Virus record (IMG/VR): IMGVR_UViG_3300033463_000022
Span: 1-22,541 of that record
Source of the DNA: a virus
Taxonomy: Duplodnaviria; Heunggongvirae; Uroviricota; Caudoviricetes
Length of the DNA stretch: 22,541 nucleotides
Reading direction: 5' to 3' (one strand)
Of this stretch, positions 3,177 through 19,879 are shown in pieces. Position 1 is the first letter of the stretch. Every line of letters begins with the position of its first letter. The notes beneath the pieces were generated by a model. The model searched no databases and was not told the origin of the DNA. It saw only the letters and a program-made list of their open reading frames with translations. The position numbers were made by a program, and so were the translations under genes.

Positions 3177-3345
3177 TATAATAGAAAATAAAAAGCTCTT
3201 CCTCTCATTTTTAGATACCAGGAACATCACTGTAGTTAGCTGTAGCAAACGAAAAGTAGTAAAAATAATTCTCTACCAATCCGAAAATTTTTCTTGACAA
3301 AAAGCTTGTAGTGTGGTACAATAAGAGCATGAAAGGGGGAACGAC

Positions 3346-3744
3346 ATGAGCAAAGAGACTGAGCAGATTGCGCGCATTATGAGCGGGCTTGGCTGTACGG
3401 AAGCGGAAGCGCGGGAGATTTACGAGTATGACCGCGCGGTAGACAAGGGCGAAAAGAATCTGGACTACGACCTAACCGTAGAACAGCAAAAGGTAGCCGC
3501 GAAAATGACGCGCACTGGCACGCGCAAGATGAAGGAAACTGGCTTGCGCCTTACGAAGCGTGAACGCAAGCCGAACGAGCTGAAAGGTGCGATTATCGCC
3601 GCTTTTGCAACTTTTCTGGCTCAAACGGACGAGTTTTCCGCAGAAAATGTGGAAATCACGAACAAAGAGCGTGTAATCGTGTTTGATTGTGGCGGTGAAA
3701 AGTTCGAGCTGACCCTCACGCAGAAACGCAAGCCCAAAAACTAA
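3346..3744 (+). CDS. Hypothetical protein, 132 aa
   Basis: Promoter TTGACA 3294/TACAAT 3317; AAAGGGGG RBS; hairpin after the stop. Confidence 0.75.
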   Translation: MSKETEQIARIMSGLGCTEAEAREIYEYDRAVDKGEKNLDYDLTVEQQKVAAKMTRTGTRKMKETGLRLTKRERKPNELKGAIIAAFATFLAQTDEFSAENVEITNKERVIVFDCGGEKFELTLTQKRKPKN

Positions 3745-3939
3745 ACAAAAGCAAGGAAAAACGCGGAGAAATTCGCGTTTTCCCGCCGTTTTTGCAACAA
3801 AAGGAAGAAGTTTACATAACTCGCGGCCCGGGCGATTGGTAGTTTCTACAAACCATGATGAAAAGATTTGTGCATCTTGAATACTTGACTTTGAAGTATG
3901 ATGTGCTATAATAAGAGCATGAAAGAGAGGTAAGTAGAA

Positions 3940-4236
3940 ATGATTAAATACCTGTATCGTGAACACAAAGGCTATGCTTTCCGCGTGTGCCTGGAAGATG
4001 GACGGGATTCCATTCTCGGCTCGTATGTCACCATCGAAATCCAAGAAGCAAAACCCGCTCCCCGTAACAGATTAGATGCCTTTATTCAATGTTGGACGGT
4101 GAAATCCTATACGCATGGAACATGGTATTCTTTTAAGAAGTATCCACTGGAACAAACGATAAAGAATCTGCTTGATTATGTAGTCAGCACTTTTGACGAT
4201 GAAATCCGATTTGTTAAGGAATGGGGTGAGATATAA
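3940..4236 (+). CDS. Hypothetical protein, 98 aa
   Basis: TTGACT-17-TATAAT promoter and GAGAGG RBS upstream. Confidence 0.7.
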   Translation: MIKYLYREHKGYAFRVCLEDGRDSILGSYVTIEIQEAKPAPRNRLDAFIQCWTVKSYTHGTWYSFKKYPLEQTIKNLLDYVVSTFDDEIRFVKEWGEI

Positions 4237-4368
4237 TGTGCGGCCGGGCGTGGTCAAAGTGCACAAAAGAGCTTCAAGCGGGCGGCCGCAAGTTTGTTTA
4301 TTCTGCCTATTGCTTTTTACCTCTTGATGTAGTATCATAAGAGTACAAAAAGAAAGGAGATAACACCT

Positions 4369-4560
4369 ATGAAATTCTTTGTCTGGCGTGCTTCCGATTG
4401 GACGGAAAGTGTTGTTGAAGTCAACACCCTTGAAGAGCTGAAAAAGTTTCAAAAAGATTGCGGTGTTCCGCTTGTGGTCAATTTCGACTATCATAGTCTC
4501 ACTTTCCCTAACGAGGGACTCATTAATGAGATTATTATTTACGATGACTACATCGAATAA
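4369..4560 (+). CDS. Small phage hypothetical protein ending in IIIYDDYIE
   Basis: AAAGGAG RBS; same leader (AGAGTACAAAAAGAAAGGAGATA) as the 2594 gene. Confidence 0.75.
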   Translation: MKFFVWRASDWTESVVEVNTLEELKKFQKDCGVPLVVNFDYHSLTFPNEGLINEIIIYDDYIE

Positions 4561-5189: not shown

Positions 5190-5656
5190 AGGGCTTGCCC
5201 TTTACTCGCCCGGGAGAGTCTCGCCGGCCCGAGCGCGAGCGCGACAGGCCGTTTTTCCCCCTCCAGCATCCATATGCAAAATTCTACCTCAATCTAGCCC
5301 ATATGGCCCCTTTCCTCTAAAATCCCATAATAGGCATTTTCGCCACGATATAACCAATTTTATCTCGTTCTTACTTCTTACCCATTTGACTGGTTTTGAT
5401 TAGGCTGTAGCTAGCATGGAATTAGCTGGTGCTAGGACAAACAAGAGCGAGAGATTTTTCCTGTGGCCGACCGGAAGTCTGGCCTGACGATCGGTGGCCG
5501 CCGCATATGCAGGGCTTGACATAATATATAAAATATGTTATAATATAAAAAAAGAAACCAACGCCGGTCGGTACTGGCTTACAGATTTATTTTACATAGC
5601 ATAAAAAATATTATATAATATATATAGAACAATAGAAAGGAAGCTGATATCATCAT

Positions 5657-6130
5657 ATGAATATTGACAACTACATAGAGTCTCTTCTTAACTCGGGCAT
5701 GAGTATTGATACCATTGGCCGAGAGCTGAGTTGTGCCCTTAACCGCAAGCAAAAAGAAATCGACGAGAAGGAGAAGCAGGCTCGTGCAATGGAGAAGCAT
5801 CGCGAAGGTCTCATTGATAATATCTTCGCGGCTGTGGATACCAACCACTTCGATTATAAGACTGCGGCATCGGCTGCCACATTGGCACTCATAGACGACG
5901 AATTCATCACTGATACGGCGACTGCCGAGGATTTCTTCACCTATATCTTGAATATCTTCAGGATTCAGCCGGGCGGGGTCAGCTCTGCGAAGGAAAAGGT
6001 GGCAGCTAATCTGAAGCATGAGATGCCCAACAAGAGCAAAGAAGAAAAGAAGGCAGAAACCCCGCTGGGTAAGTATGACGAAGACGTGAAAAAGATTGGT
6101 GAGTTCTTGCGGGCGCTCGGTCTGATGTGA
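5657..6130 (+). CDS. Hypothetical protein, 157 aa, with N-terminal coiled coil
   Basis: TTTACA-17-TATAAT promoter; GAAAGGAAG RBS; terminator hairpin at about 6144-6175. Confidence 0.75.
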   Translation: MNIDNYIESLLNSGMSIDTIGRELSCALNRKQKEIDEKEKQARAMEKHREGLIDNIFAAVDTNHFDYKTAASAATLALIDDEFITDTATAEDFFTYILNIFRIQPGGVSSAKEKVAANLKHEMPNKSKEEKKAETPLGKYDEDVKKIGEFLRALGLM

Positions 6131-6142
6131 CTACTAAGCGAG

Positions 6143-6178
6143 AAAAGAGGTGGCGTAAAAGCTACCTCTTTATTTTTA
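6143..6178 (+). terminator. Rho-independent terminator
   Basis: AAAGAGGTGGC-gtaaaa-GCTACCTCTTT followed by a T-rich run. Confidence 0.7.
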
Positions 6179-6353
6179 TATGGAGAGGGAGACGGTAAGG
6201 GCGGATGGAGGAGGACATAAGGTGGGGCCGACCGGCACCCACCTTCCTCAATCTTCTTCCAATTCCTTCCAATTCCCTTCAGTTTCTTCAATCTCTCCCT
6301 ATTCTCTCCAACTTCCATTCTCACTCTCGCTTTCCTCTCCCCTCTGCCCCTTC

Positions 6354-6746
6354 TCATAAACACTATAAAGGAGTTACAAGAGGTAGTTTAGCCATTTCCT
6401 CCACTATTGCCTCTAACCTCTCTCGATATTCTAATTTCTTTCGTTCTTCCTTTATCTTTTCAATATCAACCGACTTACAATTTCTTTCTATCCACCCTAC
6501 TACTTCATCAAAGTTGTCTACTACCATCTATATTGCCTTTATTTGATTCTCAAAAGTTTCGTCATAAGTCTTTTCCACCAAGAATAAATAAAGTGGTTCT
6601 CCACTCTCTTCTCCAAAGTATTCCTTACAGAGCCCTATTAAAATCTTATCATCTCTATCAGCTATACTACCATCTGCTATACCTAGCTCCTTTGCACTAT
6701 CAAGAAAGCTAACTATTGAGATGGCTTTTTCTTCTATCATTTTCAT
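6354..6746 (-). CDS. Hypothetical 130-aa protein if TAG is sense (in-frame TAG at 6528-6530 and 6363-6365)
   Basis: The code-11 ORF stops at TAG 6528, but the frame continues MVVDNFDEVVGW...KLPLVTPL(TAG)CL to TGA 6354. It could instead be two coupled genes, because ATG follows the first TAG. Confidence 0.55.
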
Positions 6747-6822
6747 TTCAGTTTCCTTTAACCTTTCTTTTCACTTTTTCAAATCATTTCTTGCTACCTC
6801 TACTTCGAGCAGCGCCCAGGAA

Positions 6823-6860
6823 GGCTAACGCGCCCGAGCTTGCGAGGGCAGGCGTTAGCC
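6823..6860. other. GC-rich inverted repeat next to the iteron-like array
   Basis: GGCTAACGC...GCGTTAGCC 9-bp arms. Confidence 0.6.
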
Positions 6861-6869
6861 TGACTAGAA

Positions 6870-7180
6870 TTCCAATGGAATTGGAATCTCCTTTTCTTTT
6901 TTGCTTTGTCCAATTCCAGGAAGCGCGATTTCCAGAACTTTCCAATAGATTCCATTAGAAATCATAAGTATTTCCATTGGAATCCTTTACTTTTCCAGAA
7001 CTTTCCATTGGAATTCCATTGGATTCCAGACTCTTTTCCAATAACTTTCCATTAGATTCCATTGGAATTCCAACATTTTCCACCAACTTTTCATTGGAAA
7101 CTTTTGGATTTTCCAATGAAATTTTCTTAGAAAAATCTGGTTTTCCTTTAGAATCCACTGGAATTCCATTAGATTTCCAG
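6870..7180. repeat. Iteron-like array of quasi-palindromic TTCCA(A/T)TGGAA and degenerate copies; candidate replication origin
   Basis: Full copies at 6870, 6972, 7003, 7057; many degenerate copies (TTCCATTAGA, TTTCCAGAAC, TTCCAGATGGAA); the array continues past the stop codon into intergenic DNA. Confidence 0.7.
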
Positions 7181-7572
7181 ATGGAAATCCGATTTAACCA
7201 ATCCTTATCTTTATATAACCACCCTGGATCCGCACCAGGTCCCTCAATATAAGCTGCAATCTCTCCGGCAGAAGCGCATCCATTCAATAAAGCCTCTTTT
7301 ATGCGGGAGTGATCATGTGCTATATTCTTACTTCCTCCATGAGCTCCTTTAGCAGCACACTCAGCGCTAATCTCCCCACCTTTATCAATCACTCTAAAGG
7401 CATTCTTATACCAAGCCTGCTCCTTCTTAGGAACATCATCTAAATTATCATCACCATAAATACCATAATTAATCAATTTCCAAACAGCAAAATTCTTATC
7501 TTCCTGTTCCCAGTCTTCCATATCATCAAGCCAGGATTCCATAAATCTAAAAAATCTTAACTTCTCAGCCAT
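6955..7572 (-). CDS. Putative replication initiator / replisome-organiser-like protein (DUF6291-like N-terminus)
   Basis: GGAGG RBS before ATG 7572 (MAEKLRFFRFMESWLDD...LINYGIYG); repetitive SNGIP C-terminus encoded by the repeat array. Confidence 0.55.
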   Translation of the reverse strand: MAEKLRFFRFMESWLDDMEDWEQEDKNFAVWKLINYGIYGDDNLDDVPKKEQAWYKNAFRVIDKGGEISAECAAKGAHGGSKNIAHDHSRIKEALLNGCASAGEIAAYIEGPGADPGWLYKDKDWLNRISIWKSNGIPVDSKGKPDFSKKISLENPKVSNEKLVENVGIPMESNGKLLEKSLESNGIPMESSGKVKDSNGNTYDF

Positions 7573-7747
7573 TTGCCATTCCTCCCAACACAAGGCTTAA
7601 ATCTTGTTGAAATTCAGGCGTTGCCTCAAATACCCAACACATTAATCGAGGTTTGGTAGGATTAGGCATAGTTGCAATAGGGTTATACCCCATTGTCATC
7701 AACTAAGTAGCTACTTTCAAAGAATAGATAATCTTTGTAGTTTGCAT
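7565..7747 (-). CDS. DUF5659-like small protein, 60 aa, with in-frame TAG at codon 15
   Basis: GAAAGGA RBS; MQTTKIIYSLKVAT(TAG)LMTMGYNPIATMPNPTKPRLMCWVFEATPEFQQDL; its TGA overlaps the start of the next gene. Confidence 0.7.
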
Positions 7748-7766
7748 TTTGTTATTAGTCCTTTCT

Positions 7767-7925
7767 TTACTTCTCTGCGAAGAAGTCGTGAATCAACTTA
7801 CGCAATAATTGAGATATAGTGGTGTCATTCTACTCACAATATTTATCAAGCAGTTCACGATCTTCTGCTGTGACAGAAGTAGCAACACGCACGTTATTTT
7901 GCTTCTTTTGCTTCTCTGCTCCCAA
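7767..7925 (-). CDS. Ribbon-helix-helix (CopG/MetJ/Arc-like) DNA-binding protein, 52 aa, with in-frame TAG at codon 32
   Basis: AAGGAAG RBS, TTG start; NVRVATSVTAEDRELLDKYCE(TAG)NDTTISQLLRKLIHDF matches the RHH strand-helix-helix pattern. Confidence 0.8.
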
Positions 7926-7958
7926 AATAATCACTTCCTTCTACTATTCTTTAAAATT

Positions 7959-7987
7959 ATTGTAACATATTTTTCCCCTTTTGTCCA
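7959..7987 (-). promoter_or_regulatory. Promoter of the minus-strand module
   Basis: TGGACA-17 nt with TG-TACAAT on the minus strand. Confidence 0.55.
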
Positions 7988-8192
7988 ATTTTTATCCTCC
8001 TCTTTCACTTGCGGATTTCCAAAATTGGTTACCATTTTTACCAATCCACATCCTCCCAACTTCGTTCCTCCCCTTCATTCCCCACACTGTTACCCATCTT
8101 CCCTCTACCTTAATCCGCCCTCCAAATCGCTTTACTTATAATAAAAATTAAACTATAATATATATAGAAAATAAGAAAGGAACAAAACACCT

Positions 8193-8444
8193 ATGAACAT
8201 CTTCGACGAGCTTAACAACTATATTGAACTTGCAGATGGTTCAGATGGCTGGATTGACGAAGAAGACAACTGGCACGAGCTCACTAAAGAGATTGGCAAC
8301 TTCCTCTCTCGTCATTTCGAGCAATATGACGTTGAAAGAGTTACTGCTTTCGAATCCTGTGGTTGTGACGCCGGTGTCGTCTGTATGGCTTGGATTGATG
8401 ATGGAAATCTCCAGACTCATAATATTAAATGGAGGCGTACATGA
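8193..8444 (+). CDS. Hypothetical acidic protein, 83 aa
   Basis: Promoter motif and GAAAGGAA RBS. Confidence 0.7.
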   Translation: MNIFDELNNYIELADGSDGWIDEEDNWHELTKEIGNFLSRHFEQYDVERVTAFESCGCDAGVVCMAWIDDGNLQTHNIKWRRT

Positions 8445-9313
8445 AAGCAGTCAAGTCTCTGTCTGTAGTGCTAAAAAAAGTCCTCGATGAATACTTAGAG
8501 GCCGTCTGCAAACATCAATACGAAAGACTTGAATACGAAAACTTCAAGAAAATTGCTTCGATTGCTAATAACTATTGCGATACCACTATCCTATTTGGCT
8601 ATCCAGAAAATTCTAGAACCATAAAAGAAGTTGCTATACAGTATAACAATACTAAAGGCAACCGCATTCTCATTCGCAGTGAATATGCTCCCTTCATTGA
8701 CTTTTGTTGGGATAACTACTATAATCAAGAGAGAAAGGAATCTGATACTATGAAATTTCCCGCTATGAACCTCGACTTCGGCCCTGCTAAGAATGTCGCC
8801 TATTCTCCCTACGGTCTTGCCATTAAATCTGGCGATAAGTGGCTCACCTACGATACTGCAAACGAAAAGACCGTCGATGTAACAGGGTTCATTGTAGAAA
8901 TGAAGAATATGATCTACAAGATGCCTGTTGCCATCAAGGATATTAAGGCTGGCGATATCATCAATCACCAGAGTAAGGCAATGTTTGTCACTCGGGTCGA
9001 AGAGACTAAGCTCACAGTTATTGACCTCACTGCTTCTGAAGAGAAGGTCGTGATTCCTGTCAGCAACGTCTTTGGCTTCAACTTCATCACCAAAGTTGTC
9101 TCCCTTATGAATCTCAACATCGGCACTCCGAGCCCCGATCAGCCTTTCGGAAATCTCATGCCTATTATGATGCTGAGCGCGCTCTCTGATAACGAAGGAG
9201 AAGATGGCGATTTTTTCGGCAACATGGATATGAGCAAAATGATGATGCTGTCAATGATGACGGGGAATCAAAATCCGTTCGCGAATCTATTCAACTTCAA
9301 TCTTCAGAACTGA
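8441..9313 (+). CDS. Hypothetical protein with a probable separate internal start at 8750 (187-aa product)
   Basis: GGAGG RBS and ATGA overlap at 8441; an internal promoter and RBS precede the in-frame ATG 8750. Confidence 0.6.
   Translation: MKAVKSLSVVLKKVLDEYLEAVCKHQYERLEYENFKKIASIANNYCDTTILFGYPENSRTIKEVAIQYNNTKGNRILIRSEYAPFIDFCWDNYYNQERKESDTMKFPAMNLDFGPAKNVAYSPYGLAIKSGDKWLTYDTANEKTVDVTGFIVEMKNMIYKMPVAIKDIKAGDIINHQSKAMFVTRVEETKLTVIDLTASEEKVVIPVSNVFGFNFITKVVSLMNLNIGTPSPDQPFGNLMPIMMLSALSDNEGEDGDFFGNMDMSKMMMLSMMTGNQNPFANLFNFNLQN
8697..8725 (+). promoter_or_regulatory. Internal sigma70 promoter
   Basis: TTGACT (8697)-17 nt-TATAAT (8720), then GAGAAAGGAA RBS. Confidence 0.65.
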
Positions 9314-9518
9314 AAGCAAAAGAAGGACAGGTAGTATTTAATAAGGAGACTAACGAGTTCTTTATTACGGATAAAAATGGAAAGCTATTGAAAGTAGATA
9401 CGGCTGTACCGCTTAACGCCTATCCTTGTAACTATATTGTTCCAACAGATTCCATTCCTCGCGATATCTCATGGACGTCTGCGCCAAACTCCGTGAATCC
9501 TTACTACTTCTAACCTAA

Positions 9519-9549
9519 CCGGTCGGGCATTATAGCTCCGACCGGTTTT
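9519..9549 (+). terminator. Terminator-like hairpin
   Basis: CCGGTCGG-11 nt-CCGACCGG followed by TTTT. Confidence 0.6.
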
Positions 9550-9608
9550 ACTTATAATAAAAATTAAGATATAATATATATAGAAAATATGAAAGGAGAC
9601 CTTCCGCA

Positions 9609-10073
9609 ATGACGAATCTTGAAAACTATCTTACCAACTGGCTCACTTCTCGTGGTTACGAACTCGAGGTTCGTGAGTGCGATGACGAGTTCTTCTATAG
9701 CGACCCTCTTTCTCTTATCGCCGTTGCCACTTCCGCCAAGGCTGTTGATCGTTACTTCCTTCGCTTCATTGACTCTCTTGGTTGCCAGGTCTCCTTCTCC
9801 AACGCTTTTATCCCCGAGTTCCTGCATGAGCTCGGCCACAACGAGACTCTTGATGACTTCGACGAGGAAGATGATGAAGAGTATCGTGAGTTCGAACACT
9901 CTTTCGAAGGTCTTGATATGGACAACTGGGAGAATCAGCTCCTCTATATGTCCCATCCGATAGAACTCGCTGCGACCCAGTGGGCTGTCGACTACATCAA
10001 TAGCCACGTTGATGAAGTTATCGAGATGGCTAAGACTCTCAACACTATCTTCGCTGAAAGGAAGGTCGCTTAA
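9609..10073 (+). CDS. HEXXH zinc metallopeptidase-like protein (ImmA/IrrE-like)
   Basis: 'FLHELGH' plus downstream 'ELAATQWA'; own promoter and GAAAGGAG RBS. Confidence 0.6.
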   Translation: MTNLENYLTNWLTSRGYELEVRECDDEFFYSDPLSLIAVATSAKAVDRYFLRFIDSLGCQVSFSNAFIPEFLHELGHNETLDDFDEEDDEEYREFEHSFEGLDMDNWENQLLYMSHPIELAATQWAVDYINSHVDEVIEMAKTLNTIFAERKVA

Positions 10074-10444
10074 TGGACGGAGTAACAATTCTTAATACCT
10101 TTACTCAAGAAGTTACGGGATGGGGTCTTAATGCTTTTGGAACCATTTTTATAGTTCTTTGCGTTGCCAATCTCATAATAAGTTTTTACCTCGCGGTTCA
10201 TCTCGATGATCCTGCTACCGCAACAATTATCACAACCCTTGGTGTTATTTGCGGGATTGTCGGTGTTGCAATTTGTAGTCATGCTAAGGTTATTGACACC
10301 TACGAAGCCTATGAAGTAATAGTCAACGAATCAGTAAGCTTCACAGAGTTTCAATCTCGCTATGACATCTTGGAACAGAGAGGCGATATATTCGTTATAA
10401 AGGAAAAGGAAGGAAAGCTATCTGATGGTAACAATTACACATGA
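10073..10444 (+). CDS. Membrane protein with two predicted TM helices
   Basis: Two hydrophobic stretches; TAATG coupling with the upstream gene. Confidence 0.7.
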   Translation: MDGVTILNTFTQEVTGWGLNAFGTIFIVLCVANLIISFYLAVHLDDPATATIITTLGVICGIVGVAICSHAKVIDTYEAYEVIVNESVSFTEFQSRYDILEQRGDIFVIKEKEGKLSDGNNYT

Positions 10445-10625
10445 AGAGTTTAACCTCATAATTGATCAGGCATTAAACTTGGTTCCAGAAGCAAATGACG
10501 AGTTCTCCCACGGATATCGCTTAGGTGTTCATCAAGTTGCAACGGTTGGACTAAAAATACTCTATGCAAAATGCAATCAAGAGCTAATGGAACTTGCGGC
10601 CGCTCGAGATCTGGAGCGCCTTTAA
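10425..10625 (+). CDS. Hypothetical protein, 66 aa
   Basis: AAGGAAA RBS; terminator follows. Confidence 0.65.
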   Translation: MVTITHEEFNLIIDQALNLVPEANDEFSHGYRLGVHQVATVGLKILYAKCNQELMELAAARDLERL

Positions 10626-10633
10626 CCTTGCTT

Positions 10634-10664
10634 TAAGTCGCTCCTACGAGCGACTTTTCTTTTA
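10634..10664 (+). terminator. Rho-independent terminator
   Basis: AAGTCGCTC-ctac-GAGCGACTT followed by TTCTTTT. Confidence 0.75.
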
Positions 10665-10719
10665 TAAAAAAATAATATATAATATATATAGAAAATAAGA
10701 AAAGAGGTTGATAGATACT

Positions 10720-11073
10720 ATGAGCGCTTGTACAAGTGCTACTCTTCTTCGTGGTTGGAGATTCAGTTACGACGACCTCGTTGAGACATTTGGTATTACC
10801 GAGAATAACGAGGAAGAGATTCTTGATAAGCTTTATAACACGGAACATTTCTATTGTGATAACGGTTATGCTGACGTAGACTGTAAAACCTACTACCTCG
10901 GCATTATGCTCGCGGAAGTTGACATGTGGGATAACAGCATCCCCATTAATCTTGCAGGGCTTCTTGCTTCGAGCGCTGAAGATAATGAAAACCTTATCAA
11001 GCTTTGGAACTCTCTTGAAATCATTTTTCCCGCTCGAGAAATCAAAACTTGGCTCTTCCCGAGAATTACCTAA
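10720..11073 (+). CDS. Hypothetical acidic protein
   Basis: AAGAGG RBS; start may be TTG 10708 or ATG 10720. Confidence 0.65.
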   Translation: MSACTSATLLRGWRFSYDDLVETFGITENNEEEILDKLYNTEHFYCDNGYADVDCKTYYLGIMLAEVDMWDNSIPINLAGLLASSAEDNENLIKLWNSLEIIFPAREIKTWLFPRIT

Positions 11074-11088
11074 AGGAGGTTCCCACTA

Positions 11089-11319
11089 ATGGATTCTACT
11101 TCGATTACCAGAGCAGAGTTCGAAGCCATCATCCGCCAGCTCAACGATATGCCGAACGACGATGCAGATAAAGATGCAGAATGGTGGGGCGGTTGGCGCT
11201 CCGGAGTTGCTACGTGCGCCTCCATGGTCTACAAACTTATGCTTGAGAAAAGCGAAAAAGCTCTTCGAGACTTGAAAGCTGAAGACCAGTACAGACAACT
11301 TTACGGCGTCAGATTCTAA
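11089..11319 (+). CDS. Hypothetical protein, 76 aa
   Basis: AAGGAGG RBS. Confidence 0.7.
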   Translation: MDSTSITRAEFEAIIRQLNDMPNDDADKDAEWWGGWRSGVATCASMVYKLMLEKSEKALRDLKAEDQYRQLYGVRF

Positions 11320-11321
11320 AT

Positions 11322-11432
11322 GAATGGTGTAAGAAAAATAATATCCCGCTTATAAGAATCCCTTATTCTCATCTAAAAGATCTCTGTATAGATGATTTAA
11401 AACTTGAAACTTCTCAGTTTATAGTTGTATAA
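11322..11432 (+). pseudogene. Orphan C-terminal fragment of a phage Vsr/DUF559-like endonuclease
   Basis: EWCKKNNIPLIRIPYSHLKDLCIDDLKLETSQFIVV*; no start codon or RBS. Confidence 0.55.
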
Positions 11433-11453
11433 AAGAAAGGAAGTATCAATATA

Positions 11454-11801
11454 ATGGTTGCTCCTTCATTTCAATCTATGATCGTTGTTTCGGAGGTCTT
11501 CATTGAAAATGGTAAAGAGTACATCAAGGTCAAAAATCCAAAAACCGGCACCATCAGAAAATGCCGCTGGTATACCGAAAAAGAATATAAAAGCGCTTAC
11601 GGCAGCAAGAGCAAAGATGAACCAGTAAAGTTTACCGACGAGCAGAAAAAGTTCTGGTATCCTGCGGAAGTGAGGTCACTAGAGGTTTCAGGCACGAATC
11701 CTCGCACCCTCAAAGCTACGGTTGCCGCAGATCCTCGTATAATCAATGTTCTTATGTGGCAAGCCTATGGCGCAAAAATGCAAGCAGAGAAAGGAGCTTA
11801 A
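11454..11801 (+). CDS. Hypothetical protein, 115 aa
   Basis: GAAAGGAAG RBS; basic, aromatic-rich. Confidence 0.7.
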   Translation: MVAPSFQSMIVVSEVFIENGKEYIKVKNPKTGTIRKCRWYTEKEYKSAYGSKSKDEPVKFTDEQKKFWYPAEVRSLEVSGTNPRTLKATVAADPRIINVLMWQAYGAKMQAEKGA

Positions 11802-11804
11802 TCT

Positions 11805-11972
11805 ATGATGTTAAACGCATTACTCTTGACAGCAGCATCCCTAGTTATGGTATATAATACCATAATCTATGAGGGTATAACTCGTGCCGTAGCTGGTTGC
11901 GCGACTATTCTCATAATTGATCTGGCTATCCAAGCTTGGCGTGATTACTTCGACAGTAAGAGAGGTCTTTAA
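11805..11972 (+). CDS. 55-aa membrane miniprotein
   Basis: AAAGGAG RBS; two hydrophobic segments; not in the ORF track. Confidence 0.6.
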   Translation: MMLNALLLTAASLVMVYNTIIYEGITRAVAGCATILIIDLAIQAWRDYFDSKRGL

Positions 11973-11973
11973 T

Positions 11974-12201
11974 ATGTCCGGCATCGAACTCGCACGCCAG
12001 AAGCTTAATCTCAGCAAGGAATATGTAAGGAGAGCCACGGGTTACCGCGGCTCTGGTCGTCCTACTATGTCAGAGCTTGCTTCTCTATGCGTTCTTTTTG
12101 GTTTATCGGCGGAGGAGCTATTAAAGGATTATCCAATTCTAACGGAAGACGAGCGAGTTATAGAACACTTAAAGAGTTTTAAGGAAATGATGAAGCGCTA
12201 A
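11974..12201 (+). CDS. XRE/Cro-like HTH protein, 75 aa
   Basis: AGAGG RBS before ATG 11974; 'ARQKLNLSKEYV...PTMSELASLCVLFGLSAEELL' resembles a shortened XRE fold. Confidence 0.5.
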   Translation: MSGIELARQKLNLSKEYVRRATGYRGSGRPTMSELASLCVLFGLSAEELLKDYPILTEDERVIEHLKSFKEMMKR

Positions 12202-15456: not shown

Positions 15457-16467
15457 GTGATAAATTTGTCTAGAAAGGAAATTAGCAAGAAAGAGTATTC
15501 TATTCTCTGCCAAGTGCTGAGTACCCCAGAGATGCAATTACTCAAGGTTCTCAATCAGACCTTGGGATTGTACTATGACAAAAAAGATATTGTTATGACA
15601 AAGGATTATCTATATGCCATAGGGGACATTCCTATCGCTCTTATTGCCCATTTGGATACTGTCCATTCAGCCCCTCCAACAGTATTTTTCCATGACTCCG
15701 AGAAGGGTTATATTTGGACGCATGAAGGTTTAGGAGCTGACGATAGAGCTGGAGTTTTTAGTATTCTTATGCTACTTAAGAGCGGATATCGTCCTAGTGT
15801 AATCTTCTTGACACAAGAAGAGCGCGGAGGTATTGGAGCAAGCGCGTTTATAAAAGAATGGCCGGCACCTGCGGTTGAGACAAACTTCCTTATTGAGTTG
15901 GATCGTCGCGGTGAAGACGATGCTGTCTATTATGAGTGCGGCAATGAGCGTTTTGAAAAATTCATCACGTCTTTTGGATTTGTTACAGACTGGGGCACTT
16001 TTTCTGATATTTCAATTATAGCCCCCGCGTGGGATCGAGCGGCGGTTAACCTATCAATAGGGTACTTTGATGAACACTCCTTGTGTGAACGTCTTAATTA
16101 CCGCTATATGTTCAAAACAATAGAAAGAGTAAAGCAGATATTAGAGAGCTACGAAGATGGTATCGTTTACAAGTTCGAACCTATCGACTGGACTAAAAAT
16201 GTTGGTTGGCAGTATTTTACTTTTCCTCGCGAGCAGCATGGTAAAGCTCTTTGCGATTGCTGCGACAGCTGGGTCTCAAGGGATGCTCTAACAAATGTTT
16301 ATGATTGCGAAATAGAAGAAAAATATCGGCTCTGTCCAGAATGTGTAGAGAGATATGTAACTTTTTGCAAAACTTGCGGCCGCCCCATTTTGATTCCTAG
16401 CGGCATAGATAGTGACGGATTATGCGCAGAATGCAGAAAAGTAAAGGGGATTGATGTAAAAGCATGA
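15457..16467 (+). CDS. M28/M20-like zinc peptidase with C-terminal CxxC zinc ribbons
   Basis: AHLDTV, GADDRAG, QEERG, ELDR and DEHS metal-ligand motifs; AAGGAG RBS with GTG start. Confidence 0.8.
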   Translation: MINLSRKEISKKEYSILCQVLSTPEMQLLKVLNQTLGLYYDKKDIVMTKDYLYAIGDIPIALIAHLDTVHSAPPTVFFHDSEKGYIWTHEGLGADDRAGVFSILMLLKSGYRPSVIFLTQEERGGIGASAFIKEWPAPAVETNFLIELDRRGEDDAVYYECGNERFEKFITSFGFVTDWGTFSDISIIAPAWDRAAVNLSIGYFDEHSLCERLNYRYMFKTIERVKQILESYEDGIVYKFEPIDWTKNVGWQYFTFPREQHGKALCDCCDSWVSRDALTNVYDCEIEEKYRLCPECVERYVTFCKTCGRPILIPSGIDSDGLCAECRKVKGIDVKA

Positions 16468-17840
16468 GAGATTTACAACAAATTCGTCGGCAGGTAGAAT
16501 CTGTCTTGAAATGTTCACAAGACTATCCGTTCAATCCGCATGTAAAAGATATTATTGACCAGTGGTATGAAGCAAAGAAGCCCTACATCGACCTGTTTGG
16601 CGGAGAAACATCTGTCCTTCTCCAGAGTAATGTTGAAATAGAGCTTACACAAGAGGACTTGGACAGAATGTTTGACTCCTTTATAGGATATTTGGAAGAT
16701 AATGACTTGAATTATTGTTTCAATGAAACTATCCAAATCTCCATTAGTAAATTTCTCTTTGATAATAGAGAGGGATTCTTTCAAAATAGGGTGGTAAAGG
16801 ACTATCCTACTTTAAAGATCTGTAAAGGCGCCAAACTCCTAAAGTGCTTCAAATTTTTTATTAAGGATTTTGATACTTGCCGAAAGGCGCAGGATATTGC
16901 TTCCAGATACATTCAAGATATTAAAATAACTGGAAATTTGTATCTCTCCGTTGACCCTCTTGACTTCCTCACTATCAGTGAAAATAATAGCAATTGGCGC
17001 TCCTGCCATTCACTAGATGGCGACTTTCGTATGGGAAATCTTAACTATATGATTGACGATACTACCTTGATCGCTTTTCTTGCGAATGAAAAGAAAGAGC
17101 AGTTAAAGTGTATGCCTGCGGGGCTACTGTGGAATAACAAAAAGTGGCGTATGTTGGTGCATACTAACAATTGGGAGAGTATCATATATTATAATAGACA
17201 ATATCCTTTTTCTAATACTGGGTTGATATTGAAAGTCTATAACGGGATTGTTGAACTTAGAGAAGATAACTGGTACGATATGTTCTTAACGCCTAATAAG
17301 TCAGGCTTCAAGAAAATAGTTCTGCGTTCTGACGAGCCCCCTATTACCCTAGAGTATAATTTCATTCTTGGCTCGAGAGAAAGGCTCTACGATATGAGGG
17401 ATATTGTAGACGACAGCGAAGGAAAAGGATATGACGACCTGGTATATTCTTCTCACTATGCACCAGTCTTTAGTCTGAGAAGAAAAGCTAGCAAGAATTA
17501 CGATGATGCAACCTATGCCACTGAAAAGACTAAAGACTGGGATGCTGCTTTCCACGAGGTTTTTGATATAAAAATAGGCAAGAAATGCGGGTGTGTGAAG
17601 TGCGGGAGCCTTGATATTGACCGCGCTAACTCATTCTTGTGTGAGGACTGTATCGCACTTAATGACGCAGACGAGGACCTATTTGCAGAGTGCGAATGGT
17701 GCGGGAGAAGGCTCTATCCCGACGATAAAAGATATAATTTTGAGGGTGATATCATCTGCGAAACGTGCAATAGCGCATGTACCACATCTGGCAACCTTAT
17801 TATAGACTAGTACCCTGTTGGAATAAGAAGAATTATTTAA
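16464..17840 (+). CDS. Uncharacterised zinc-ribbon protein, paralog of 12343 gene (ends at 17810 in code 11, at 17840 if TAG is sense)
   Basis: 'LSVDPLDFLTISENNSNWRSC...NNKKWR'; C-terminal CxxC array; ATGA overlap with the peptidase gene. Confidence 0.75.
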
Positions 17841-18789: not shown

Positions 18790-18865
18790 ACCCTAGCAGC
18801 TCAAATGGTTGAGCGCGCGCCTTATAAGCGCGTGAGTGTTGGTTCGAGTCCAACCTAGGGTACCA
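18790..18865 (+). tRNA. trnI: tRNA-Ile(UAU)
   Basis: Acceptor ACCCTAG/CTAGGGT, anticodon loop CT-TAT-AA (18823-25), TTCGAGT T-loop, encoded CCA. Confidence 0.9.
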
Positions 18866-19040
18866 CAAGGAAGCGAGGCGCGTAGCCTCAAGAACGCTCG
18901 CCGCGAAAGGAGCCGTAACGCCGTTGGGAACTTGGGTGTGAATAAAATAAAAATATTTTGCACTTTGGACAAAATTTTTTCATTTGTTATTTATATTCTT
19001 CATATATAATGAAGAAAATTTGAAAGGAGTGCAAATTTAC

Positions 19041-19805
19041 ATGTCTACTTGTGGTATTTATAAATTTGAAAATAAAATAAATCATAATATTTATATTGGT
19101 CAATCTGTTGACATAGAACGTCGATATAAAGACCATCTAAATAGAGCAAAGAATCCTCATAAATCAAATACTGAATATGATTCTGTCCTTCACTAGGCAA
19201 TACGAAAGTACGGTATTGAGAATTTCCTTTTTGAAATAGTAGAGGTTTGTCCTAATAATAAAGAAATTCTTAATAATAAAGAACGTTTTTGGATTGCATT
19301 TTATGATTCTTTTAGCCATGGATATAATGCCACTTCAGGAGGCGAGGCTCAAGAACCCTCCTTAAAAATTGACAAATGCTTGGCAGACCAAATAAAACAT
19401 GATTTGTTATATACTACTGATACATATGATGTGTTACATGAAAAGTATAATATCTCAACTGGTAGAATTTCAGAAATAAATACTGGTAAAATTTGGTATG
19501 ATGAAAAACTTGATTACCCACTCAGAAAAAAGGATAAAATATCTCCATCTAAAATTTGTCCAATCTGCGGTGGAATAAAAGACAAAGACGCTTCTTTATG
19601 TTTATCCTGCTATAGAGCATCGTTAACTAAACCTGTAACTAGAGAAGAGCTAAAAGATCTTATCCGCACTACACCTTTTACGACAATTGCTAAAAAATAT
19701 AATGTAACAGATAACGCTATTCGAAAATGGTGTATAGGATATAAACTCCCATCTAAAAAGAAAGAGATTTCTGCTATTAGCGATAAAGATTGGGAAAAAC
19801 TGTAA
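19041..19805 (+). CDS. Free-standing GIY-YIG homing endonuclease (Seg-like) with in-frame TAG at 19194-19196
   Basis: GIY...YIG, 'LH(TAG)AIRKYGIENF', GYN, C-terminal zinc ribbon and HTH; the two track ORFs (18984 and 19380) are in the same frame and are joined only by this TAG. Confidence 0.85.
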
Positions 19806-19879
19806 GGGTCGCTAACTCAATGGTAGAGTGCTCGGTTGAAGCCCGAGTAATCTTCGTTCAATTCGAAGGTGACCCACCA
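19806..19879 (+). tRNA. trnF: tRNA-Phe(GAA)
   Basis: Stem CTCGG/CCGAG, loop TT-GAA-GC, encoded CCA. Confidence 0.9.

Follow-up and report, generated by a model that had tools for sequence, protein, structure and literature searches.

Two adjacent minus-strand genes of a tailed phage from the cattle gut, one for a predicted RHH (Arc-like) repressor and one for a DUF5659-like protein, are each interrupted by a single in-frame TAG codon, which raises the question of whether these genes are broken or whether the phage reads TAG as an amino acid. We conclude, with a probability of roughly 0.93, that this phage of about 147 kb decodes TAG as glutamine with its own tRNA(CUA), and that both genes are intact. 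The locus lies in the window (the whole stretch of DNA that was analysed, 22,541 nt), which forms the beginning of a single IMG/VR virus record of 147,056 nt (42% GC, estimated completeness 85%). The region has been seen in bovine gut metagenomes, in at least two samples and studies. The features discussed below are collected in Table 1.

Table 1. Position of the features (window coordinates, unless marked as genome)
Feature	Position	Strand	Remarks
Predicted RHH (Arc-like) repressor gene, 52 codons	7767..7925	-	Starts with TTG; heads the minus-strand operon
In-frame TAG, RHH codon 32	7830..7832	-	C-terminal end of helix A
DUF5659-fold gene, 60 codons	7565..7747	-	ATG start; 19-nt gap after the RHH gene
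In-frame TAG, DUF5659 codon 15	7703..7705	-	Middle of helix 1
205-codon gene	6955..7572	-	Coupled to the DUF5659 gene (ATGGCTGA); no TAG; homologue at the same place in L058
58-codon ORF with two in-frame TAGs	6779..6955	-	Counterpart is a called gene in L058
130-codon ORF if TAG is a sense codon	6354..6746	-	TAGs at 6528-6530 and 6363-6365
Promoter-like site TGGACA-17-TACAAT with TG	7959..7987	-	Upstream of the RHH gene; consensus scan only
Gene with standard-code stop TAG (17808-17810)	16464..17840	+	Back-up TAA nine sense codons on
GIY-YIG homing-endonuclease-type gene	19041..19805	+	TAG 19194-19196 within the catalytic domain
tRNA(CUA)	genome 40226-40299 (outside the window)		ARAGORN; label 'Pyl'
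Tape-measure-like ORF, 2,897 aa	genome 110577-119270	-	92 in-frame TAGs; most recoded of the gene set

Intactness of the RHH and DUF5659-like genes

The sequence-only reading had described two consecutive, tightly coupled genes with good ribosome binding sites, both absent from the code-11 track. Only fragments of them are indeed listed under code 11, and both become whole when TAG is taken as a sense codon. The public calls at 7565-7925 and 6528-6746 are such standard-code fragments (P0005, 44 aa; P0015, 34 aa; P0016, 72 aa), which fits the absence of both genes from that track. The standard code mis-annotates the contig and its relatives and, as these calls are fragments, any functional or taxonomic work must be performed with TAG read as glutamine.

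For the RHH gene, the coordinates, the position of the TAG and the good ribosome binding site (AAGGAAG, 8 nt upstream of the TTG) all proved correct, and the profile matches run across the TAG. The product matches two PHROG families over residues 1-51, phrog_876 ('transcriptional repressor', E 5.6e-6) and phrog_582 ('Arc-like repressor', E 1.3e-3), and its Pfam matches (DUF6290, RHH_9 and RepB-RCR_reg) all lie below the curated cut-off. An AF2 model of the monomer contains helices at residues 20-32 and 37-51 (pLDDT 90 over residues 21-50) and no strand; the N-terminal strand is expected to form only in the dimer. A Foldseek search of the PDB with this model gave no significant match, the top neighbours being VapB, AtaR, MatP and CopG. 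Homologues that are 70-77% identical are called without stops. According to the model, termination at codon 32 would deprive the protein of helix B.

The DUF5659-like gene was likewise found as described, including its TAG and its tight coupling to the 205-codon gene, whose ATG shares bases with its TGA (ATGGCTGA). The score of its product against Pfam PF18903 (16.5 bits, E 0.008) is under the gathering cut-off of 23.6. The AF2 model (pLDDT 92.4, pTM 0.75) has a beta-alpha-beta-beta-alpha topology, and Foldseek aligned residues 1-59 with several DUF5659 AlphaFold clusters (TM 0.85-0.90, probability 1.00). Homologues of this protein are 49-80% identical. The names RHH and DUF5659 given in the sequence-only reading rest on fold and PHROG evidence; the Pfam matches stay below the curated cut-offs.

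We showed that both genes are real single ORFs, as had been claimed, since PHROG and Pfam matches and small AlphaFold domains span the TAGs and full-length homologues without stops exist. The full-length homologues in the protein database carry no TAG; TAG-bearing ones would be missed there, because its proteins were evidently called with the standard code. Neither the DUF5659 protein nor the 205-aa protein led to confirmed relatives when searched against IMG/VR; relatives were instead reached via the capsid gene and whole-record searches.

Comparison with related sequences revealed direct exchanges between TAG and CAG or CAA in both genes. In the ENA contig L058 (81% DNA identity, shared gene order) the codon at the DUF5659 TAG is CAG, and in the related phage G002 the DUF5659 gene has TAG at the same column as well as two further TAGs. 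An invariant Gln of RHH helix B is encoded by CAA in our phage, G003 and L059, and by TAG in G002. The TAG column common to our DUF5659 gene and that of G002 was considered as a sign of selection; this was rejected, as about one third of Gln-type codons in genes of this kind are TAG anyway.

The two ORFs that follow in the operon have counterparts in L058. No Pfam or PHROG match was obtained for the 205-codon gene. The C-terminal part of its product (encoded by 6955-7110) consists of repeated 'SNGIPMES'-like units, and the DNA repeats of this segment and of the ORF 6779-6955 give many short self-matches in the relative L058. One of the two TAGs of the latter ORF aligns with Gln in L058 ('IPLEFx' in our sequence and 'IPLEFQ' in L058).

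Genome-wide evidence that TAG encodes glutamine

The sequence-only reading had proposed that TAG is a sense codon in this phage, and that the coding densities under codes 11 and 15 be compared. Density was measured as greedy coverage of the whole genome by ORFs of at least 100 aa, with readthrough of TGA and of TAA as controls. Coverage increases markedly, from 0.56 under code 11 to 0.80 with TAG as a sense codon, whereas the controls yield only small gains (0.62 for TGA and 0.68 for TAA). At 110-120 kb coverage rises from 0.38 to 0.98, and the number of ORFs longer than 500 aa grows from 7 to 16 with TAG as sense.

A hexamer model, for which long code-11 ORFs served as the training set, was also used to score ORFs and gave 142 genes; in-frame TAGs (293 in total) occur in 53 of these. 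They cluster in a minus-strand module at 93-140 kb, which contains the late structural and lysis genes, among them the tape-measure-like ORF (Table 1), an ORF of 1,717 aa (24 TAGs), the portal protein gene (11) and the endolysin gene (6). Of the Gln-type codons (CAA, CAG and TAG) of the late module, 38% are TAG, compared with about 6% across the window and 8% between 22 and 92 kb.

With so many in-frame TAGs hitting essential genes, including those for the portal, tape measure and endolysin, it is scarcely credible that they arose by nonsense mutation or assembly error and that the two small genes are pseudogenes of an ordinary code-11 phage, even though the RHH TAG is a single base away from the GAG of the close relative L058 and many close homologues contain no TAG. 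The same explanation is contradicted by the smaller gains upon TGA or TAA readthrough, by the presence of a suppressor tRNA, by the homologous genes of G002 and G003, which also carry TAG (once at the same column as ours), and by the recovery of 80% of the 31-mers of the region in one independent bovine sample. At the level of the genome it is effectively refuted.

The identity of the inserted residue was examined on homologous columns. The capsid gene used as a query retrieved 44 related IMG/VR loci, to which the late proteins were aligned by tblastn. Opposite our TAGs, these loci contain Q in 717 cases, TAG itself in 364 and E in 260, with other polar residues coming next, and the commonest sense codons at these positions are CAA (527) and then CAG (190). 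Stops of the related loci that fall within the alignments are TAG in 2,097 cases, TGA in 64 and TAA in 7. In the reciprocal comparison, the residue of our phage opposite the TAGs of relatives is most often Q. A Codetta-style likelihood calculated over 129 TAG columns was best for Q, with K and E trailing by 45 and 47 ln units, respectively. Glutamine is therefore both the commonest and the maximum-likelihood residue on the homologous columns, which was the comparison suggested in the sequence-only reading.

That reading had also stated that Gln fits each of the individual contexts. Gln does fit them, but relatives are not uniformly Gln at the two columns flagged: the RHH column contains Glu (GAG in L058, GAA in L059) or Asp, and the DUF5659 column contains Q in the closest relative and otherwise R, E, S, I or K. 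The identity of the residue therefore rests on the genome-wide evidence. A third TAG that had been flagged, that at 19194 in the GIY-YIG gene, was confirmed as a sense codon by a Pfam match above the cut-off (PF01541, residues 23-109, E 9.3e-11, 42.3 bits against 22.6), which runs across it, as do the alignments of 150 full-length homologues in one stretch (best E 1.9e-69). At this column the homologues have R (68), K (31) or Q (22).

The acidic residues at the RHH column, the prevalence of R and K at the GIY-YIG column and the label 'Pyl' given by ARAGORN to the tRNA(CUA) could be taken to mean that TAG is a sense codon for another residue, i.e. Glu, Lys, Tyr or pyrrolysine. This is very improbable in view of the lead of Q over K and E on the 129 columns, the predominance of CAA, then CAG, opposite our TAGs and the replacement of the invariant Gln codon of RHH helix B by TAG in G002. 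The label 'Pyl' merely reflects the CUA anticodon, and the acceptor end of the tRNA, described below, is of the glutamine type. Moreover, the corresponding tRNA-SUP-CTA of the phage phAss-1 was assigned to Gln by tRNAscan-SE (PMC10607447). Coding density, homologous columns and the presence of a tRNA(CUA) all agree that TAG is a sense codon in this phage, and that it is read as glutamine.

Suppressor tRNA and relationship to known recoded phages

The sequence-only reading had proposed a search of the rest of the genome for a tRNA(CUA), the release factor RF2 or a glutaminyl-tRNA synthetase. The first of these is present: ARAGORN identified 25 tRNAs in the genome, including one with the anticodon CUA. 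In this tRNA the bases U1 and U72 are mismatched, position 73 is G and the CCA end is encoded. GlnRS of Escherichia coli uses acceptor-end features of this kind, namely a 1:72 mismatch together with G73. The relatives G001 and G004 carry homologues in which the anticodon stem-loop is identical and both of these features recur. Searches for the RF-1 (PF00472) and GlnRS/GluRS (PF00749) families found neither in the record (85% complete by estimate). Since the phage itself supplies neither a synthetase nor a release factor, the tRNA(CUA) is presumably charged by the glutamine system of the host. The suppressor tRNA would then compete with host release factor 1, and only from that point on could full-length RHH and DUF5659 products arise.

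A similar competition is known from the supE-type tRNA-Gln(CUA) of E. coli, in which position 1:72 is weakly paired or unpaired and position 73 is G, and which inserts Gln at TAG in competition with RF1. The supE tRNA is a mutant allele of the host, whereas the tRNA described here is encoded by the phage and takes part in the normal decoding of its own genes.

Two further tRNA-like genes were observed on the plus strand of the genome. The first, at 26824-26909 (L001:4824-4909), is an 86-nt class II tRNA with a long variable arm. Its anticodon is UUG (Gln), and its acceptor end shows an A1.C72 mismatch together with G73. In G004 it is most similar to a tRNA-Ser(UGA), a tRNA that is absent from our genome. 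The second, at 26586-26659, has an 8-nt anticodon loop (gttt), a GC content of 34% and no encoded CCA, and may represent a tRNA of the frameshift type or a decayed one, unless it is a false call.

Phages that read TAG as Gln have already been published, including the related phAss-1 group, and the present phage is a further example. phAss-1, the representative of the proposed Phassvirus (Babkin et al. 2023, PMC10607447; GenBank OQ749652), is a gut siphophage of approximately 136 kb with TAG decoded as Gln, tRNA-SUP-CTA genes and many other tRNAs. It has a tape-measure protein of about 3,000-3,150 aa and no aminoacyl-tRNA synthetase; the absence of release-factor and GlnRS/GluRS genes is likewise reported for it (PMC10607447). 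The two phages are therefore alike in being large gut phages with TAG read as Gln, a CUA suppressor tRNA, many tRNAs and no synthetase, and the tape-measure protein of about 3,000 aa has its counterpart in our tape-measure-like ORF of 2,897 aa. They differ in that our phage, from the cattle gut, has one suppressor tRNA, whereas phAss-1, from the human gut, has two or three.

The capsid protein of our phage shows 51% identity to that of phAss-1 and 38-39% to those of the Enterococcus phages EF1 and VRE9, and both our phage and phAss-1 belong to a wider clade with Enterococcus phage EF1 and the Lactococcus 949-like phages. A megablast comparison of window positions 6000-12000 with phage records gave no match, and thus no nucleotide-level likeness to phAss-1. 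Judged by this 6-kb piece and by a capsid protein that is only 51% identical, the present phage is outside the genus Phassvirus. The contig constitutes a cattle-gut addition to the phAss-1-like recoded siphophages.

Wider parallels are provided by the alternatively coded gut phages, whose hosts, by prediction or inference, follow the standard code (Borges et al., bioRxiv 10.1101/2021.08.26.457843; PMC9523058), and among which code-15 crAss-like phages were proven by metaproteomics (Peters et al. 2022, PMC9523058). Like our phage, they have a suppressor tRNA of their own, recoded stops concentrated in structural and lysis genes, and early genes that stay compatible with the standard code. Our phage is distinguished from them (i) by the lack of an RF2 or synthetase 'code-change module', and (ii) by the recoding of a regulator-led operon in the early region as well, which was seen in three related phages.

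TAG codons of the early region and a possible timing of decoding

The RHH-DUF5659 operon forms a minus-strand island among plus-strand genes, and its codon usage is late-like, with 6 TAG against 12 CAA or CAG codons in 505 codons. TAG is strongly enriched in this island (6/505 codons) in comparison with the plus-strand genes of the window (4/4374; odds ratio 13, P = 1.7e-4). The operons led by RHH and DUF5659 genes in G002 and G003 are also rich in TAG (11/534 and 8/410 codons, respectively), and the divergent neighbour gene is free of TAG in all three phages.

A different use of TAG was noticed at the ends of early genes. The gene described in the sequence-only reading as ending in TAG at 17808 does so in the frame given, and comprises 448 codons (16464-17810) under the standard code. 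The arrangement of a TAG near the end followed by a back-up TAA or TGA is found in this gene of the window (16464-17840) and in the genes ending at genome positions 32551, 46091, 48991 and 92427. Among the early plus-strand genes, TAG is located within the last five codons in 4 cases, against 1.0 expected (P = 0.02). This suggests that TAG still terminates some early genes, early in infection. In view of these terminal TAGs with their back-up stops, the code is probably state-dependent during infection, rather than simply reassigned.

Recoding has been proposed to act as a post-transcriptional timer, with TAG serving as a stop early in infection and being decoded as Gln when the suppressor tRNA has become plentiful (Borges et al., bioRxiv 10.1101/2021.08.26.457843). 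The TAG-rich island and the early back-up stops both fit this model. The TAGs may accordingly delay or gate the output of the RHH-DUF5659 operon during infection. The operon resembles the loci of P22 Arc and Mnt and of plasmid CopG in that its first gene, adjoining a divergent promoter region, encodes a predicted beta-alpha-alpha regulator of about 50 residues; unlike these regulators, the predicted RHH protein needs amber suppression at codon 32 to obtain its helix B.

It might even be that the operon is an amber-gated switch, which feeds recoding back on the divergent early promoter region 7926-8192, although we regard this as an unlikely arrangement. The Arc-like repressor would then be full-length only after the suppressor tRNA has accumulated, and the code change itself would feed back on transcription from 7926-8192. 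The locus offers a small, testable case for recoding as a timer, since its predicted repressor depends on amber suppression and three phages share the richness of the operon in TAG.

The downstream end of the operon is less clear. The sequence-only reading had regarded 6528 and 6363 as probable further sites of recoding. TAGs are present in the frames given, but their recoding was not confirmed, as no homologues of the 130-codon ORF (6354-6746) were found other than its own code-11 fragment. Directly after the TAG at 6528-6530 comes an ATG, 8 nt upstream of which there is a weak AAGG; the TAG at 6363-6365 lies two sense codons before a TGA. Together with the excess of terminal TAGs in the early plus-strand genes and the lack of homologues showing continuity, this makes it quite conceivable that the region contains two genes (72 and 54 codons), for which the TAG at 6528 is a real stop and that at 6363 a working one. 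We nevertheless give somewhat less than even odds to such a division, since both parts share one frame and TAG is plainly a sense codon in the adjoining genes of the operon.

Several other candidates in the window were discarded. In the extended ORFs 2519-2818, 4294-4560 and 7767-7988, the TAGs at the 5' end precede the likely starts, and the minus-strand ORF 3211-4044 is an anti-sense frame of odd composition and not a gene. A Pfam search with ten plus-strand genes of the window gave nothing informative.

Some further observations concern the organization of the window. The GIY-YIG gene is located exactly between tRNA-Ile(UAU) and tRNA-Phe(GAA) (18790-19879), an arrangement of a homing endonuclease within a tRNA array like that of T4 SegB. 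A perfect promoter (TTGACA-17-TATAAT with TG, 5516-5544) precedes the plus-strand ORF 5657-6130, which is followed by a stem-loop terminator (6144-6171). These signals make it improbable that the minus-strand ORFs overlapping it (5579-6019 and 5965-6363) are genes, and the operon on that strand is likely to end near 6354. At its other end, the promoter-like site upstream of the RHH gene (Table 1) sits in the divergent intergenic region 7926-8192, where it is overlapped by 28-nt imperfect direct repeats (7973-8000 and 8029-8056; 71% alike, 56 nt apart). These repeats are candidate operator sites for the RHH operon.
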